From assembly GCA_044229975.1 (NCBI GenBank), contig JBGARZ010000003.1:448001-512000 (forward strand): DNA of 64,000 nucleotides, written 5' to 3'. The DNA comes from Polyangiales bacterium. GTDB taxonomy: Bacteria > Myxococcota_A > Polyangia > Polyangiales > Ga0077539. Position 1 is the stretch's first letter. Each line of letters starts with the position of its first letter. The position numbers were made by a program, and so were the translations under genes. The notes under the pieces are model-generated. The model was not told the DNA's origin, ran no database searches, and saw nothing but the letters and a program-made list of their open reading frames with translations. Shown piece by piece: positions 170-16,439 of this stretch.

Positions 170-2935
<2,766 letters not shown>

Positions 2936-3173
2936 GGGTGCTCGGTGTGCGAAAGGCGCCGCGCTGTCGTTGGTGTGTTGTGCCGCGATGTTGTTCGAGT
3001 GGTGTTGTTGATGCCTCTCCCCATGTCGGCAACGTAGACAGAGGGAGGGTTCACCCGCAACCAGCGCGCGGACATAACCCGTCACACCAAAAACCGTGTC
3101 CTTTCCTCGCGCCTGCGCCCACACCTTCGACCCGCCACATCATGCCGATGCATGCTCTCGCGCGGGAAACCCG

Positions 3174-8331: not shown

Positions 8332-10521
8332 ATGATCGACGTATTCGAACTCGCCCGATACGGCCACGCGCTGCCCGCCCCGGCGCAGGCTCAGCGCCCC
8401 TTCGACCAGACCCTCGGAACCCTCGCGAAGGCGCTGGGCGCCTGGTTCCAGGACGCCTCCGGACGCATCGCCGAGGCGCGCAACGGCGCGGCCGAAGACC
8501 AGGCCGTCATCGCCCGCGAGTGGGACGAGTTCGAGCGGCGGGCGCGCGACGCCCTCAAGCGCTTCGCCGAGAGCGTCGAGCGGCAGCCCACCGCGGCCAC
8601 CATGGGCAAGGTCAACGCCGGCAAGACCCTGATGCTCTCGCGCTGGTACGGCGACCTCGAAGAGCTGCGCGAGCTCCCCGTCGGCGACGCCGACACCACG
8701 GGCTGCCTCACCCGGCTCACCCGCAAGGGCGGCGCGAAGCTCGACGGCGCCATCCGGGTAAAGACCCTGGACAACGCCAGCTTCGAGCGCGAACCCAAGG
8801 CCGCGGAGGAGGCTGCGGCCCTCGATGAGTTTCCTTCCAACCTCTACGTGAGCTTCGAGCCCGGCAACCGCGACGAGTTCGCGCGGGCGCTGCGGGTCTG
8901 CCGCTTTCCGACGGCCGACGACGCGAGCTACGAGCTCGAAGAGGTCCGGCGCGGGGAGTTTCACGTCACGCGGCTCAAGACGGGCGAGTACCGGCTGCGC
9001 TCGCTCCAGCTCCGCGCGAGCGAGGTGACGCTCCGGGTGCGCCCGCTGGCCGAGACCCGCGCGTCGCGCATCTTCGAGGTGCTCGACCTCGTCGACTGCC
9101 CCGGCGCCGATCCGCAGATCGAGGCCGACGCCGCCCGCCACCTCAAGGCCGCCAAGAACCACCTCGTCTTCCTCCAGGCCGTCAACGACCTCGACCTGCT
9201 CATCCTCGTCTGCTCCTCGCAGCCGAGCGCCATCCGCCCCGGAACGCAGCTCCTGCGCGGCCCGTGGCGCCATTGGGTCGAGCGCTGCGAAGGGCAGATG
9301 CGGGGGCGCGTGGTGCTCGGTCTCACCTACGCGGGCGAGGCCATGAAGCAGTGCGCCGAGCGCCTCCGTGAGCTCGATCGCCCCGAGCACGAGCGCCAGC
9401 TCAACACCCTCCAGTCGCTGCCGCAGTCGGTGTTCGGGTCGGTCATCCAACCCCTGCGGGGGGCGCTGGATGGAGCGCTCGCGGGCGCCCTCGACCCCAA
9501 CGACATCACCGCGTGGCCGCCCTTCGTGCTGCTCGAAAACCGCGGCGTCGACCCCGACCTGGAGATCGACCCCGCGCAGATCGCCGAGGCCCGCGCCGCC
9601 GTCGTCGCCCACGTCGACGAGGCGTCCATGCCCGCCGAGACGCCCTTCGCGTGGCGCGTGGTGCACCTCTTCGCGCGGAGCTGGATCGACGACGTCGCCC
9701 GCGTTCGCGCCGCCGACCCGGAGGCCCGCAAGCGCTTCCTGGCGTGGATGGTCGACGTCGCCCTCGCCGTCGTGAACCGCGACGACCGCGGCCACGAGCT
9801 GCTCACGCGGTTGATGCTCTACCTCGGTCACCGCGGCGAGCTGCGACGCGCCCGCTGCGCCGAGCTCGTCACCCTCGCCGAGCGCGCCCGCGACGCGATG
9901 ATCGACCTGCACGAGCGCATCACCCGCGAGCCCCGCGCCGACCAGTCGGCCCTCGACGCGATGGACCAGCTCGTCGCGCGCCTGCGCGAACTGCTCCCAC
10001 GCGAGGGCGTGGCGATTCCGTTTCCCGCGGCGCTGCGGCAGCGCGCGCTCAAGCACCACGACGCCCCTCCCCTCACCTGGGACCTGCTCGTCGCCGAGTG
10101 CATCCGTGCGGCGTGCGGCGCCGTGCAGACGACCGCCCGCGCGCCCGACCTCGCCCTGGAGCTGCGCCCCGTCCTCGAACGCATGCTCGACGCCGACGTC
10201 GCCGCCCGCGCCCTGCGCGCCGACGAGGAGCGCTACCTGGGCGACGAACCCGCCAACGCCGTTCATTGCGCGCACTTCCTCCTGGCGCGGCTCGCGGCCT
10301 CCATCGACTGGTTGCTGCACGCCTCGACCGAGGCACGCGGGGAGTACGCGGCGCGCACGCTGGGCGTCGACCCGCGGCGCACGGAGGTCTATCGAAGACT
10401 GCGGAGGGTGGTGGGCGACCTGCTGGCGCCCGAGGAGGTCGACCCGCTGCTGGCGACCGCGCGCACGCAGCTCGACGCGCTGCTGGCCGAGCTCTCGACC
10501 CCGGAGGCGCCCTCATGCTGA
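8332..10521 (+). CDS. Dynamin-like/SrfC-like P-loop GTPase, ~729 aa
   Basis: G1 GKVNAGKT (8605-8628), G2 DTTGCLTRL, G3 LVDCPG, degenerate G4 (LTYAG) and a long helical C-terminus. Alternative start at 8308. Confidence 0.8.
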   Translation: MIDVFELARYGHALPAPAQAQRPFDQTLGTLAKALGAWFQDASGRIAEARNGAAEDQAVIAREWDEFERRARDALKRFAESVERQPTAATMGKVNAGKTLMLSRWYGDLEELRELPVGDADTTGCLTRLTRKGGAKLDGAIRVKTLDNASFEREPKAAEEAAALDEFPSNLYVSFEPGNRDEFARALRVCRFPTADDASYELEEVRRGEFHVTRLKTGEYRLRSLQLRASEVTLRVRPLAETRASRIFEVLDLVDCPGADPQIEADAARHLKAAKNHLVFLQAVNDLDLLILVCSSQPSAIRPGTQLLRGPWRHWVERCEGQMRGRVVLGLTYAGEAMKQCAERLRELDRPEHERQLNTLQSLPQSVFGSVIQPLRGALDGALAGALDPNDITAWPPFVLLENRGVDPDLEIDPAQIAEARAAVVAHVDEASMPAETPFAWRVVHLFARSWIDDVARVRAADPEARKRFLAWMVDVALAVVNRDDRGHELLTRLMLYLGHRGELRRARCAELVTLAERARDAMIDLHERITREPRADQSALDAMDQLVARLRELLPREGVAIPFPAALRQRALKHHDAPPLTWDLLVAECIRAACGAVQTTARAPDLALELRPVLERMLDADVAARALRADEERYLGDEPANAVHCAHFLLARLAASIDWLLHASTEARGEYAARTLGVDPRRTEVYRRLRRVVGDLLAPEEVDPLLATARTQLDALLAELSTPEAPSC

Positions 10522-13358
10522 TTGATCACGGAGTGCTGCGGCTGCGCGCGGGCCTCGACCCGGCGCTCATCACCGTTCCCCTCGGGGCTTCCTCGCGACG
10601 CGGAACCTTCGCGCGCGACGGCGACCTCGCGAAGTTCACCCTCTACGCCAGGACCTTCCCCACGGAGGAGAACACCGGCGAGTGGCTGCGCGTCGAGGCC
10701 GACGAGCTCCACTGGATCTCCGGCACCGCCCTCGCCCACGCGCTCGGTCGCACCGACGCGCGCGGCAGCGCCACCGTCGCCGCGCACGACCGCCCGGCCC
10801 TCGCCCGCCTCCACGTCGCGGTGCGCGTCTACAAAAACGCCTCCAACTTCGAGCTCGCCCTCACCCTCGCCTGGAACCCCCTCAACGAGCGCACCGCCCT
10901 CATCGTCGGCACCGCCTCGGCCGCCGAGCGCGCGATGCGCCGCCTGGGTCAGCGCTCGTCGGTGGAGGAGGCCATCGTGCTCGACCCGCACCGCCTCGTG
11001 CTCGCGCCCGAAGCGTACGAGAGCGCCTCGCCGCCGTGGGACAACGTCCTCGGCAAGAGCTCGGCGCGGCTCGCCATCACGCCGTCGCCCGACGCGCCGC
11101 TGGTGATCGTCGCCGAGCGTCCGGCGCGTCGTGAGGGAGAGACCGGCGCCACCGTCGCCATCGACTTCGGAACGCACGAGACCTCCGTGGTGACCCAGCG
11201 CGAAGGACAGCGCGACGTCACCGTGGCGGGCGGCCTCGCGCCGTGGTCGTTTCACTGCGTGTCGGTGTCGCTGCAAGGCGCCGCGTGGCACGCCGAGCTG
11301 GTCGCCCCGCCACGATCGTTCGAGGACCGTACGACCCTGGGCAACCCGGTCATGCCGCGTCCGCTCGCCGAGCGGTGGAGCGTCATGGCGAGGCGCGACG
11401 CCGTTCGCAACCGCGAGGACTCAGGCATTCCCAGCGTGCTCATCCCGCGACGTGCGGTGCCCGACGGCATCGACGGTCACCCCTTCGACGAGCGACGCGA
11501 TCCCATCCTCGGGCACCGCGCGCTGCGCCTCGTCCGCAAGGCCATCGAGCGCGGCCCCGACCCCGAGCCCGCCGCACGCGAAGCCGACGCCGAAGTGGAG
11601 GAGAACGTCGACGTGAGCGTCGAGGTCGACGCGCTGGAGCCCGCCCCGAAGCTCCAGATCGCTCGCAACCGCGCGCTCACCGACGAGTTTCTACGCGGCC
11701 TCTTCGACGAGCTCGCCGCGCGCGAGATCGTCAAACCGCTCGACGGCGGCCTCGGCTCCGTCGGTCCCATCCTGCTCAGCTACCCGGTAGCCTTCCTCAA
11801 GGACGACCGCGACCGCCTCGAAGCCGCCGCCCGCGAAGCCCTCGCGGGGAGCGCCCTGCGCGGCCTCTGCGCCGAGCCACCCGACCAGCCGCTCACCTTC
11901 CTCGACGAGGCCACCGCCGCGTCGCTCGGCGCGCTCTATCACCGCTTCGGCTCGCTCTCCCTCGACCGACTGCTCGACGCGTTTCAGCCCTTCGCCGTCG
12001 AAGGAACCGCCCCCGCTCCTCGCGCCGTGCGCGCGCTCACCTTCGACTGCGGCGGCGGAACCACCGACCTCGTGCTTCTCCGCCTCCGCGAAGACGGCGA
12101 CCGCATCGTGTCGGAGATCGAGGACTTCTACGGCCTGCCCTTCGCGGGCGTGGAGATCACCCGGCGCCTGGCCCGCGAGCTGAAGCGGCGCCTCCGACCT
12201 TCTCTGCCGCCCGACCAGCAGGAGAAGCTCCGCACCCGCTTCGCACGCGACGACGACCCGCCCGGCACCGCGCGCTCCGAGGCCGACCGCCTCCGTCACA
12301 AGCGAACGCTGGGCTTCTTCTACTTCGGCGAGGCGCTGAAGATGGCGCTCGCGGCGACGCCGCCCACCGAGCCGAAGGCGCTGCGCGCGGCGATGGCCGT
12401 GCGGGCGCAGCAGTTTCTCCCGGAGCTCGACGTGACGCGCGTGCTCGACGCGCTGCCCGATCGCGCGTGGCTGGAGGAGTGCGCCGCGACGGTGCTCGCC
12501 CCGGCGCTGGAGACCGCCGAGCGCTGGCTCTCGCGCGAGGACGCTCCGGTGCAGGTGGTGCTGGCGAGCGGTCGATCGAGCCAGCTCCCCGGCGTCGGTG
12601 AGCGCTTGCGACTGGCGTGCGCCCGCGCGCCTCGCCCGGTGCTGGCGCAGCACTTCCTGTCGCCGCGGGAGTTCGCGTCGGCCGACCTCGGCTTCGGCGT
12701 GCTCGACCTCCACGCCGCCCGCAGTGGCAAGCCCCGCGCGGACCTCTCCAAGCTCGGCGTCGCCCTCGGCCTCGCGCACGGCTACGTGCTCACCACCAAG
12801 ACCGGCGAGGGCCGACGGCTCGTGGTCGAGCCCGCCGACGAGCACAAGCGAACGCGCTTCGTGGGCATCCTCCGGCAGGAGGGTCGCGGGGTGCAGTTCG
12901 TGATGCCCGAAGACCGGCTCGTGGTGCGCGCCGACAACAAGCCCGTACAGCTCGACGAGATCGTCTGGATCGATGAGCAGCCCTTCGCCATGCGAGCCGT
13001 GCTCGGCCAGAACTTCCGCGGCCCGCCGAAGCCTGGCGCCGTGGGCAGCGTCGACCCGCCGATCCCCTTCGCGCAGGTGCGCTTCACGCCGGCGTCCATC
13101 CCCGAGCGCGAGCGCCTCGGCATCCGCAAGGTGCAGGTGGGCTTCGCGCAGCGCTCGTCGAGCGAGGTGGTGATGGTGGGCCTGCGCGTCGAGCGGGCCG
13201 ACGCCACGGAGACGGCGCTGTTGCCGCCCGATCACCCCATCGGTGCGCCGGTGTCGCTCACCGCGGGTGGACTCACGGCGCACTTCGAGACACGGCGATT
13301 GGAGTTCGACTTCCGTCGCAACGGCGCCATCGACCCCGAGGACCTCGATCGTGAGTGA
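10515..13358 (+). CDS. Hsp70/actin-fold ATPase, SrfB-like, ~947 aa
   Basis: VAIDFGT, SYPVAF, LDEATAA, FDCGGGTTD, FAGVEITRRL, GEALKMAL, SGRSSQLPGV and KLGVALG occur in Hsp70 order. The ATG overlaps the upstream stop (ATGCTGA) and has a GGAGG RBS. Confidence 0.85.
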   Translation: MLIDHGVLRLRAGLDPALITVPLGASSRRGTFARDGDLAKFTLYARTFPTEENTGEWLRVEADELHWISGTALAHALGRTDARGSATVAAHDRPALARLHVAVRVYKNASNFELALTLAWNPLNERTALIVGTASAAERAMRRLGQRSSVEEAIVLDPHRLVLAPEAYESASPPWDNVLGKSSARLAITPSPDAPLVIVAERPARREGETGATVAIDFGTHETSVVTQREGQRDVTVAGGLAPWSFHCVSVSLQGAAWHAELVAPPRSFEDRTTLGNPVMPRPLAERWSVMARRDAVRNREDSGIPSVLIPRRAVPDGIDGHPFDERRDPILGHRALRLVRKAIERGPDPEPAAREADAEVEENVDVSVEVDALEPAPKLQIARNRALTDEFLRGLFDELAAREIVKPLDGGLGSVGPILLSYPVAFLKDDRDRLEAAAREALAGSALRGLCAEPPDQPLTFLDEATAASLGALYHRFGSLSLDRLLDAFQPFAVEGTAPAPRAVRALTFDCGGGTTDLVLLRLREDGDRIVSEIEDFYGLPFAGVEITRRLARELKRRLRPSLPPDQQEKLRTRFARDDDPPGTARSEADRLRHKRTLGFFYFGEALKMALAATPPTEPKALRAAMAVRAQQFLPELDVTRVLDALPDRAWLEECAATVLAPALETAERWLSREDAPVQVVLASGRSSQLPGVGERLRLACARAPRPVLAQHFLSPREFASADLGFGVLDLHAARSGKPRADLSKLGVALGLAHGYVLTTKTGEGRRLVVEPADEHKRTRFVGILRQEGRGVQFVMPEDRLVVRADNKPVQLDEIVWIDEQPFAMRAVLGQNFRGPPKPGAVGSVDPPIPFAQVRFTPASIPERERLGIRKVQVGFAQRSSSEVVMVGLRVERADATETALLPPDHPIGAPVSLTAGGLTAHFETRRLEFDFRRNGAIDPEDLDRE

Positions 13359-13367
13359 CCCCGCACC

Positions 13368-14207
13368 ATGGACCTCCTGCGCGTTTGGAGACGACTCATG
13401 GCCTGGCTGCGCCGTCGCCCGGCGGTCCCTCAGCTTCCCACCGCGACCGCGGACCCTCTCCCCGAAGCGGGAACCCTCGCCTTCATCGGCCTCGACCCGG
13501 GCGGTGATCCGATGAGCGACCTCAAGGACTTCGGCTGGATCAAGCACCTGCAGGCGGAGGTTCCGTACCCGCAGCCTTCGTATGGTCGGGTGGAGCCGCC
13601 GTCGACGCCCGCCGAGCTGCGCGAGCGGCTCGCCGAGTGCCACCGCGCGTTGAGTGAGGCGGTGACCCTGGCCGCGTCGCGCGAGCGCCCGACCGACGAC
13701 GACGGCGAGCCCGAGTGGTTCGTGGTGCTGGCCGACCAGCTTGTTCCGTTGATGTGCTGGTACGTCGGGTTGGGATTGCCACCGACGGCCGTCGCGATTC
13801 CGCAGGGCCTCATCGACCTCGTGCAGCGCGTGAAGAAGCTCCCGCTCAACCTCTTCGAGGGTCGCGTCGGCGACAGCATCGAGAACTTCCGCGAGCAGCT
13901 CGAACGCTCGAAATCCCGCCACGCCGAGATGCAGGCGGCCAACCTCGCCATCTGGCGCGTGCAGCTCGAAGCGGTGCTCGCCCCGCTCGTCGACCGCGAG
14001 CGCGGGAGCGTCACCGTGAGCTTCGACTTTCCTCCGTTGGGCGCGCGCATCGCTGACCTCGTCCCGCCGCCGAGCCCCGGCTCACCCACGCACGGCAACG
14101 TCTCGCGGGTGCTCGTCCCCGCGCTCTCGGTCACGCTGCAATCGCCGCTCGCGGGCGTCACCTCGGCCGACCCCTCGCAGCTCTCGCGCGGCGCCCACCT
14201 GCAATGA
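13368..14207 (+). CDS. Hypothetical protein; helical core with a possibly GrpE-like C-terminus
   Basis: 9 bp after the Hsp70-like gene. Amphipathic N-terminus, coiled-coil-like middle, and tail FDFPPLG...GNVSRVLVPAL. Confidence 0.6.
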   Translation: MDLLRVWRRLMAWLRRRPAVPQLPTATADPLPEAGTLAFIGLDPGGDPMSDLKDFGWIKHLQAEVPYPQPSYGRVEPPSTPAELRERLAECHRALSEAVTLAASRERPTDDDGEPEWFVVLADQLVPLMCWYVGLGLPPTAVAIPQGLIDLVQRVKKLPLNLFEGRVGDSIENFREQLERSKSRHAEMQAANLAIWRVQLEAVLAPLVDRERGSVTVSFDFPPLGARIADLVPPPSPGSPTHGNVSRVLVPALSVTLQSPLAGVTSADPSQLSRGAHLQ

Positions 14208-14992
14208 CCCGCTCGCTCCTCCTGGTCTGCGCGCTCGCGGTCGCCTGCCGACCCGTCAACGACCCGCCGCCGTCGCCGCCTCGCGCGACCGTTGCTCCGC
14301 CCCTCACTCCACCCGTTGCCCCGAGCGTCGCCGTGCAGCCGGTCGTGTCCCGCTCCCTCGCCCCGATGCCGTCGCTCGGCCCGTCGTCGGGGCGCGCGCC
14401 CACGTCGGTCTTCGTCCTCATGCACGGCTTCGGCGCCAACAGCGCCGACCTGCGGCCCATCGCGCAACGCCTGTCGCAGTCGTTGCCCGACACGGTGTTC
14501 CTGCTGCCCGACGGCTTCGAGCCGGTGCCCGGATCACCCGACGGGCGGCAGTGGTTTCCCTTCGCCGGAGCCGACGACCGCGCTCGCCTCGCGGGCGTCC
14601 GTCAGGCGTCGACGCAGCTCGTCGCGTGGATCGACGATGAGCTGCGCGCCCGTCACCTCAGCCGCGATCGCCTCGCGGTCGGTGGCTTCTCGCAGGGCGC
14701 CATGATGGCCCTCGACCTCAGCCTCCACATGAGCCCCGCACCCGCTGGTGTCGTCTCGCTCTCCGGCCGCCTCGTCGACGACGCCAACCCCTCCGCCGCG
14801 CCCGCCCCCGTGCTCGTCGTCCACGGAACCAGCGACGCCCGCATCGACGTCTCCTCGGCGCGCCACGCCATCACCCGCCTCGGCGAGCTCCACGTCCGCG
14901 TGGAGTCGCTCATCCAGCCCGGCGTCGGGCACACCATCACGCCGGAGGGCATCGCAGCGGCCGAGCGTTTCCTCCACGGGCTGTGGCCGTGA
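14204..14992 (+). CDS. Phospholipase/carboxylesterase (alpha/beta hydrolase), probable lipoprotein
   Basis: MHGFG, GFSQG nucleophile elbow, HGTSD, GVGH; lipobox-like AVAC. ATGA overlap with the upstream gene. Confidence 0.9.
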   Translation: MTRSLLLVCALAVACRPVNDPPPSPPRATVAPPLTPPVAPSVAVQPVVSRSLAPMPSLGPSSGRAPTSVFVLMHGFGANSADLRPIAQRLSQSLPDTVFLLPDGFEPVPGSPDGRQWFPFAGADDRARLAGVRQASTQLVAWIDDELRARHLSRDRLAVGGFSQGAMMALDLSLHMSPAPAGVVSLSGRLVDDANPSAAPAPVLVVHGTSDARIDVSSARHAITRLGELHVRVESLIQPGVGHTITPEGIAAAERFLHGLWP

Positions 14993-15576
14993 GCGACGAC
15001 CGGACGCCCGACGAGCACCTCGTGGTGCTCACCACCGAGCGGCTCCTGCTGTCGATCATGCCGGCCTCCCACGCGGAGCAGTTCCTCACCTACTCGCAGC
15101 GCAACCACGAGCACCACGCCCCGTGGGCACCCCCGCCGCGCGACCCGGTGGAGACCGTGGAGACGGTGCGTCGGCGCCTCGACGAGAGCCGCCGCGACGC
15201 GATCGCGGGCACCGCATTCCGCTGGCGCCTGCGATGGCGCGACGACCCCGATGGACCGGTCGTGGGCAACGTCTCGCTCACCCGCATCGAGCGTGGCCCG
15301 ATGGAGCGCGCGGGCCTGGGCTTCGCGCTCGACGTCGATCAGCAGGGCAAGGGGCTGGTGGTGGAGGCCGTCGAGGCGGTCATCGACCACGCCGCCAACG
15401 TCCTCAAGCTGCGCTTCCTCGAAGCGGGTCACGCGCCGCAGAACCTCCGCAGCGCTGCCACGCTCCGACGCATCGGCTTCGTCCCCTACGGCTACGCGCG
15501 CGACTACCTGCACGTCGGCGGCCGCGTGCAGGACCATGTGCTGTTGCAGTACGACCTCCGCCCGCGCCGTCGGTAG
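14989..15576 (+). CDS. RimJ/RimL-family GNAT N-acetyltransferase
   Basis: LTTERLLL, QGKGLVVEA, NLRSAATLRRIGF, GYARDYL..GGRVQDH. GTGA overlap with the upstream gene. Confidence 0.9.
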   Translation: MSDDRTPDEHLVVLTTERLLLSIMPASHAEQFLTYSQRNHEHHAPWAPPPRDPVETVETVRRRLDESRRDAIAGTAFRWRLRWRDDPDGPVVGNVSLTRIERGPMERAGLGFALDVDQQGKGLVVEAVEAVIDHAANVLKLRFLEAGHAPQNLRSAATLRRIGFVPYGYARDYLHVGGRVQDHVLLQYDLRPRRR

Positions 15577-15587
15577 ACTGCCTCGTC

Positions 15588-16439
15588 GTGATCACCCAGG
15601 TACAAGCGGGCCCGTACACCGTCCGGGGCGTTTCGGTCGGCGGCGTCTACACGACGCTGCACGTGCCCGAGCTCGACGTCGTGCTCGACGCGGGGCTGTC
15701 GCTCCGGTCGTTTGCCACGGTGGGCCGCTTCTTCCTGAGCCACGGGCACCTCGATCACATCGCCGGCCTCGCGGGCCTGCTCAACATCCGCGGCCTCATG
15801 GGCGCCGGTCGCGCGACGATCCACCTGCCCGCCGAGATCGAAGCGCCCGTGCGCGACCTGCTGCGCGCGCACGCCCCGCTGTCTCGCGCTGAGTTCGCGG
15901 TCGATCTGGTGCCCATGCTCCCGGGCGACGAGCGGTCTCTCGGGCACGGGCTCTTCGTGCGCGCTCTCCGCACGCACCACCCGGTTCCATCGCTCGGGTA
16001 TCAGTTCATCCGGCGGGTCTCGAAGCTCCTGCCCGAACACCAGGGCAAAGCCTCCGAGGAGATCGCCCGGCTTCGCAAGGCGGGCACCGCGGGTGTGTTC
16101 GAACAGCGGGAGAGCCTCGAACTGGCCTACGCCACGGACACGCTCTCGCGCGTACTGGAGACCGAACCATCGCTGCTGGAGAGCCGCGTGCTGGTGATCG
16201 AGTGCACCTTCGTCGACGCCGATCGCAGCGTCGAAGAGGCCCGCCGCAAGCACCACCTCCACCTCGACGAGCTCATCGCGCTCGCGCCGCACTTTCGCAA
16301 CGAGGCCATCGTGCTGATGCACTTCGGCCAGGCCGCGTCGCCCGCGCGGGTGCGCGATGTGTTGCAGCAACGCCTGCCGCCGGGCCTGCGCGAGCGCGTC
16401 GTGGTCTTCGCCCCGGAGGGCGACCGCTGGTTCGGGTGA
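15588..16439 (+). CDS. Metallo-beta-lactamase-fold hydrolase, short-form tRNase Z-like
   Basis: SHGHLDH, THHPVPSLGY, AYATDT, IECTF, HLHLDE, LMHF. Confidence 0.85.
   Translation: MITQVQAGPYTVRGVSVGGVYTTLHVPELDVVLDAGLSLRSFATVGRFFLSHGHLDHIAGLAGLLNIRGLMGAGRATIHLPAEIEAPVRDLLRAHAPLSRAEFAVDLVPMLPGDERSLGHGLFVRALRTHHPVPSLGYQFIRRVSKLLPEHQGKASEEIARLRKAGTAGVFEQRESLELAYATDTLSRVLETEPSLLESRVLVIECTFVDADRSVEEARRKHHLHLDELIALAPHFRNEAIVLMHFGQAASPARVRDVLQQRLPPGLRERVVVFAPEGDRWFG

Follow-up and report, generated by a model that had tools for sequence, protein, structure and literature searches.

A co-inherited triad of dynamin-like, SrfB-type Hsp70-fold and candidate anchor genes in the Polyangiales, resembling SrfABC

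Three adjacent genes of a Polyangiales bacterium, here called A, B and C (Table 1), are one dedicated, co-inherited unit, and sequence comparisons indicate that this triad is a real conserved module and a SrfABC-like variant, which by family tests is not a member of SrfABC. We propose, with a probability of about one half, that it is a membrane-tethered SrfABC-like machine with an anchor other than SrfA, in which the Hsp70-fold protein B likely controls how the dynamin-like A assembles, with A in turn remodelling the membrane. A published description of the triad was not found in a search of titles and the beginnings of abstracts, in which few subscription journals were covered, and the available passages of the ParA preprint (10.64898/2026.10.19.760177) and of the CoCoNuT paper (PMC11090510) do not describe such an arrangement.

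Gene layout and inheritance within the family

Table 1. Features of the triad in the window (the whole analysed stretch of DNA, 64,000 nucleotides).
Gene	Position	Strand	Length (aa)	Features
A	8332..10521	+	729	Dynamin-like TRAFAC NTPase; G1 92-99, G2 T122/T123, G3 255-258, degenerate G4 T332-Y-A-G
B	10515..13358	+	947	SrfB-type Hsp70-fold ATPase; beta-rich N-terminal domain ~1-200; nucleotide-binding domain ~212-755; C-terminal beta domain aligning to SrfB
C	13368..14207	+	279	No known family; amphipathic helix ~3-16; helical bundle 50-207; beta domain 214-274

The tight coupling of three genes in the original prediction was reproduced together with its coordinates, with a 7-nt overlap between A and B (10515-10521) and a 9-nt gap between B and C (13359-13367). 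GC3 in the three frames is of coding type (0.89-0.94), and the GC of the A-B-C region is that of the remaining window. For A, B and C nothing scored above cut-off in Pfam, NCBIfam or PADLOC, and a promoter scan found no site. The claim that the proteins lack transmembrane (TM) segments and signal peptides stood in that no clear TM helix was found in any of them (no 19-residue window above 1.65 on the Kyte-Doolittle scale), and it has to be amended in that C opens with an amphipathic helix. The database copy of C begins ten residues later; the homologues align from the first Met.

The plus-strand run goes on past C with an esterase, which overlaps the stop of C by 4 nt, and GNAT and metallo-beta-lactamase-fold genes, with overlaps, at 14204-16439 of the window. 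The esterase follows C in only 4/14 loci (L002-L005), and the downstream esterase and GNAT genes were rejected as parts of the module, being present in the closest relatives only. The upstream histidine kinase was rejected as well, with no match upstream of A in 14 loci.

Co-occurrence was surveyed in 60 relatives, with three weak Hsp70-type matches (~1e-4) left out of the count for B. A, B and C were each present in the identical 22 of the 30 same-family genomes, essentially as one locus per genome, and in none of the 30 genomes from other families, which agrees with the dedicated system suggested earlier. The conserved triad expected of a gene-neighbourhood survey was also found, as B, wherever a close full-length copy of it was present (14 loci), is preceded by A and followed by C; contig ends truncate A in L009 and L013, and in L012 and L013 either A or B is broken into two pieces. 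Some copies are split or contain stops (G005, G006, G018, G021 and G023). Relatives come from Polyangiales, Myxococcaceae or Deltaproteobacteria MAGs, and in a sample of the phylum, scored at two candidates per genome, matches were found in 4/401 genomes, all of the same family and including the source genome itself.

The distance matrices of A, B and C correlate at 0.78-0.85 and their trees are largely congruent (11 loci, L001 left out). Compared with the three closest loci, dN/dS lay at 0.12-0.17 in A and B, with C higher at 0.23-0.26; it climbs at greater distances, at which dS has probably reached saturation. Conservation of A and B is about that of BamA (80/78 vs 80% in L005 and 90/88 vs 84% in L003). 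Since related genomes are not independent, these results show a shared history, not a function.

Distribution outside the family and genomic neighbourhood

Outside this one family the spread of the A and B pair is sporadic. The profile of B collected 41 clusters at 50% identity, 20 of them at E <= 1e-30, and A and B were adjacent in a Thiomargarita record (L015), in a finished genome of the same order (G074), in the metagenome loci L084-L086 and in a planctomycete genome (G1215), while in G314 B lies behind a weakly A-like fragment. The frequencies were 2/55 genomes in the order of Thiomargarita, 1/401 and 1/331 in two planctomycete samples, and 1/48 in the order of G314, namely G314 itself. 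With the queries used, plasmids, viral contigs and phages were all without a match. A third gene after B was not found in the metagenome loci L085 and L086, and in the incomplete genomes G1215 and G314 the search for it gave chance-level matches only. Separately, many planctomycete and Lachnospiraceae/Selenomonas records (L016-L077) have the two core Hsp70 motifs of B in large ORFs, which were open frames of 828-890 aa in the three checked and belong to a separate Hsp70-like family.

A conflict system would account just as well for the scattered distribution of the pair beyond a single family, and the main rival to the membrane-tethered machine is thus a dedicated anti-phage or conflict system, fixed early in the family, in which B would sense or switch and A would be the effector. 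We regard this as unlikely, and still as the strongest of the rivals. It is favoured by the occurrence across phyla at the low frequencies given above and by the loss of the triad, absent as a block from 8/30 family genomes; dynamin pairs have been reported to protect against jumbo phages (bioRxiv 10.1101/2022.05.11.491447) and Hsp70-like domains to occur in CoCoNuT systems (PMC11090510). In addition, the triad of G074 is immediately preceded by three tandem, nearly identical genes of the PD-(D/E)XK family (L122:7522-10013). On the other hand, the conservation like that of BamA, the vertical inheritance and the host-like GC speak against it, as does the lack of matches in plasmids, viral contigs and phages, and A, B and C themselves have no PADLOC match. 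In the flanks PADLOC (2023) matched 12/87 proteins (a raw count) through generic domains (kinase, methyltransferase, OmpA, protease etc.) and found no complete defence system among the 87. These comprised 79 of 88 picked proteins (without three triad frames and six from L009, a near-duplicate of L008) and eight from L122 and L086. Pfam, run on 57 proteins, five of them from SrfB regions, gave varied metabolic and surface genes.

The nearness of the triad to cas3, pointed out earlier along with a possible role in defence, is incidental. cas3 ends 5.2 kb from A, with bamA and a histidine kinase in between, and it is part of a CRISPR locus of its own to the left of the window; none of 14 loci had a cas3 match, and with the PADLOC results for the triad and its flanks a link to cas3 or to a defence island was not borne out. 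In L005 metabolic genes follow bamA. As for the CRISPR locus, cas3 heads a run of minus-strand ORFs that ends at a CRISPR array, whose period is 61 nt and in which one 24-mer occurs 59 times (G000:C11:433821-451139; window 170-3124 and left), and this period suggests an ordinary type I-E locus. Two further genes were seen in other loci. In a myxobacterial relative, a gene some 3 kb upstream of A carries the shoulder domain of the Major vault protein (PF11978; L012:2299-4740), and in G906 an AMP-binding enzyme comes next after a SrfB gene, beside which no SrfC lies within 13 kb (L165:3631-8654).

Protein A

The assignment of A as dynamin-like was upheld, as the motifs G1 (GKVNAGKT), G2 and G3 (DCPG) are invariant in 21 close rows, G1 and G3 are kept in three distant rows as GKxxxGK[TS] and DxPG, and Atlas features group A with Dynamin_N clusters (0.96). 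The homologue of A in G074 reached 26.2 bits on Dynamin_N (E 9.4e-6), just below the cut-off of 27, while a PDB sequence search with A returned nothing meaningful. A and its homologues had no match to PF10139 (SrfC), on which two SrfC controls score 1131 and 728 bits, and hhalign of A against two SrfC sequences gave 67% over G1-G2 only. The regions N- and C-terminal of the NTPase core are presumed to be a helical stalk.

What had been missed in the earlier assignment is the degenerate G4. The motif [NT]KxD is absent in A, and at its position, set from strand order and not from a structure, 19/22 rows have T-Y-A-G and 3/22 T-H-A-A, the latter also found in G1215. One of two SrfC sequences has TKFD there. 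The Asp of G4 sets guanine specificity and its loss goes with ATP preference in SpoIVA (PMC7952092). Because A is without the guanine-specifying G4, use of ATP is possible, and A may use ATP or have relaxed nucleotide specificity. SpoIVA belongs to the TRAFAC GTPases, has an altered G4, prefers ATP and forms polymers (PMC7952092); its likeness to A is by analogy only.

Protein B

By its sequence, B is best read as a relative of SrfB and not as a DnaK. On PF07520 (SrfB) it scored 15.2 bits against a cut-off of 27.1 (E 0.005), and two distant homologues reach this cut-off with 30.4 and 27.1 bits. With hhalign it aligned to four SrfB sequences at 98.1% over residues 374-861, into the start of the C-terminal beta domain and thus beyond the ATPase core, which supports the kinship with SrfB proposed before. 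Against three DnaK sequences the alignment reached 94.6% over residues 422-705 only, ending short of the DnaK substrate-binding domain, and PF00012 gave no match. The AlphaFold model of B is poor (pLDDT 54.5); its Foldseek matches are Hsp70s, as are the PDB sequence matches of a deep B profile (best E 8e-11).

The Hsp70-like nucleotide-binding motifs seen in the original prediction turned out to be conserved in an alignment of 45 rows, with D217 and G219 in 43 (two gaps) and E465, D511, G513, G686 and G752 in 45. Nearly invariant residues of catalytic type are D217, K379, E465, D511, T516, E606, K609 and G686, which presumably correspond to DnaK residues, K379 lying outside the aligned range. 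From this conservation it is likely that B is an active ATPase of the SrfB type. B thus shares with DnaK the Hsp70 nucleotide-binding fold and conserved catalytic motifs, but differs from it by an extra N-terminal domain. It had also been claimed that B is not the housekeeping DnaK, and indeed the genome carries a separate, canonical pair of adjacent grpE and dnaK on contig C19. The same genome has 13 HSP70 Pfam matches, of which four or more are nearly full-length genes resembling DnaK, and a single GrpE (contigs C13, C19, C20, C27, C32 and C38).

Protein C and the third protein with a TM segment

C represents a protein family without a family match or a clear fold match. In its model (pLDDT 75.5) a helix at the N-terminus is followed by a helical bundle and then a small beta domain; the best fold matches were generic helical bundles at Z 4.4 (rmsd 3.7, 93 aligned) and Z 3.8, and Foldseek returned none at E <= 0.001. 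Ranked by hydrophobic moment, this helix comes first among the 14-mers in 7/10 family sequences and holds ranks 4 and 10 in two more, while the C of L005 is without it. C is a candidate membrane anchor or adaptor, which the original prediction had missed.

In G074 a gene of 335 aa starts 3 nt after B, and its product has a signal-like hydrophobic N-terminus, a TM segment (KD 2.67) and a C-terminal domain. A homologue is present in the Thiomargarita genome unlinked to A and B, and the domain of this TM-type protein occurs in exactly the same 2/55 genomes of the order as B. The tail of the G074 protein resembles that of C in register, hhalign of C against the TM-type protein gave 4%, with 13 and 29 of 300 shuffles reaching the score, and among 6048 decoys only three outscored L008/L009, whereas most C rows ranked poorly or were unreported, the C of the window among the latter. 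Taking these comparisons together, we lean towards C being homologous to the TM-type third protein.

C could instead be a divergent nucleotide exchange factor of the GrpE type, serving B in a private DnaK-GrpE-like cycle with A as the client, a reading that is compatible with a membrane-tethered machine and that we hold to be quite improbable. The layout of C, helices followed by a small beta domain, is in its favour, and the C-terminal G-x-V-x-R-V-L-x-P...R-G-A-H-V resembles the GrpE tail by eye, with one hhalign of the tail alone in register (1.2%, P 0.04). The window's C also beats 300/300 shuffles on the GrpE HMM, at 1.1 bits, where four other C sequences do not. Against the full GrpE family, however, hhalign gave 0.2% and there was no Pfam match (PF01025); an HMM of the GrpE tail reported 9/21 C rows, in every case behind at least 132 of 6048 decoys. 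GrpE was not among the listed rows of Foldseek and two VIA structure searches with C, and no usable Atlas match was obtained. The GrpE-like third gene of the original prediction is therefore not supported. Neither was a J protein seen, in which the triad likewise differs from a DnaK-GrpE system.

Discussion

The triad resembles SrfABC in that a gene for a large Hsp70-fold protein and one for a dynamin-like protein are adjacent, with a third partner that has a membrane-binding feature, and in that B aligns to SrfB through and past the ATPase domain. It differs in the order of the genes (GTPase, Hsp70, anchor in the triad versus srfA, srfB, srfC), in the score of B below the PF07520 cut-off and in A, which lacks both a PF10139 match and the TKxD of one of the two SrfCs. 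C is also unlike SrfA as this protein is described, with kinase-like, TM and lipocalin-like domains. No TM segment or kinase match was found in the 279 aa of C by Pfam, NCBIfam, the model or hydropathy, in agreement with the earlier statement that srfA is absent.

Myxobacteria are predators, and a complex exported as a toxin against prey or competitors would suit such a life; this further rival follows what has been proposed for SrfABC of Xenorhabdus, and we consider it very improbable. B is related to SrfB, and SrfABC is described as cytotoxic to cultured cells (PMC6950479). The triad, in turn, has no kinase-like or lipocalin-like partner of the SrfA kind, the conserved domain of the third protein of G074 and G061 lies after the TM segment, which would put it on the cytoplasmic side, the pair is also found in sulfur bacteria and planctomycetes, and export genes do not recur in the flanks (Pfam, 57 proteins).

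Bacterial dynamin-like proteins such as LeoABC/Eleos and DynA share with A the G1-G3 motifs and the Dynamin_N neighbours in the Atlas. In contrast to these systems, the triad pairs one dynamin with an Hsp70 and not two dynamins, and A has a degenerate G4, no detected TM segment and no PADLOC match. In DynA, protection has been attributed to membrane integrity (cited in 10.1101/2022.05.11.491447), so that the defence and membrane readings can merge.

In the membrane-tethered machine that we prefer, C would hold the complex at the inner membrane, the ATPase cycle of B would drive the assembly, disassembly or recycling of A, and reshaping or repair of the membrane would fall to A, possibly with ATP rather than GTP. 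Cells could also gain protection from phage lysis as a side effect, which has been reported for DynA. That A, B and C would form a complex is suggested by analogy, as SrfA, SrfB and SrfC co-immunoprecipitate (PMC6950479) and TM-anchored SrfA has been modelled as a platform for SrfB and then SrfC (bioRxiv 10.64898/2026.09.18.752743). Likewise, we infer membrane binding by C, action of B on A, use of ATP by A and a role in envelope maintenance. Points against this reading are the poor model of B, the weak homology between C and the TM-type protein, the alignment of A to SrfC over G1-G2 only, the helix-less C of L005 and the third gene missing at L085/L086.

More broadly, and tentatively, since we think it somewhat unlikely, bacteria might generally use the pair of Hsp70 and dynamin as an engine for membrane remodelling whose anchor can be exchanged, SrfA in one case and the C family in the other; in the triad the dynamin would have turned ATPase and be cycled by an Hsp70 of its own, much as the membrane coats of eukaryotes are by Hsc70. 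The complete operon in the finished genome G074 opens tests of whether an Hsp70 regulates a dynamin on membranes and whether a dynamin without G4 runs on ATP. SrfB and SrfC have been labelled 'virulence factors' without a mechanism, and if the reading as a general engine is true, they would be recast as cell-biological machinery.
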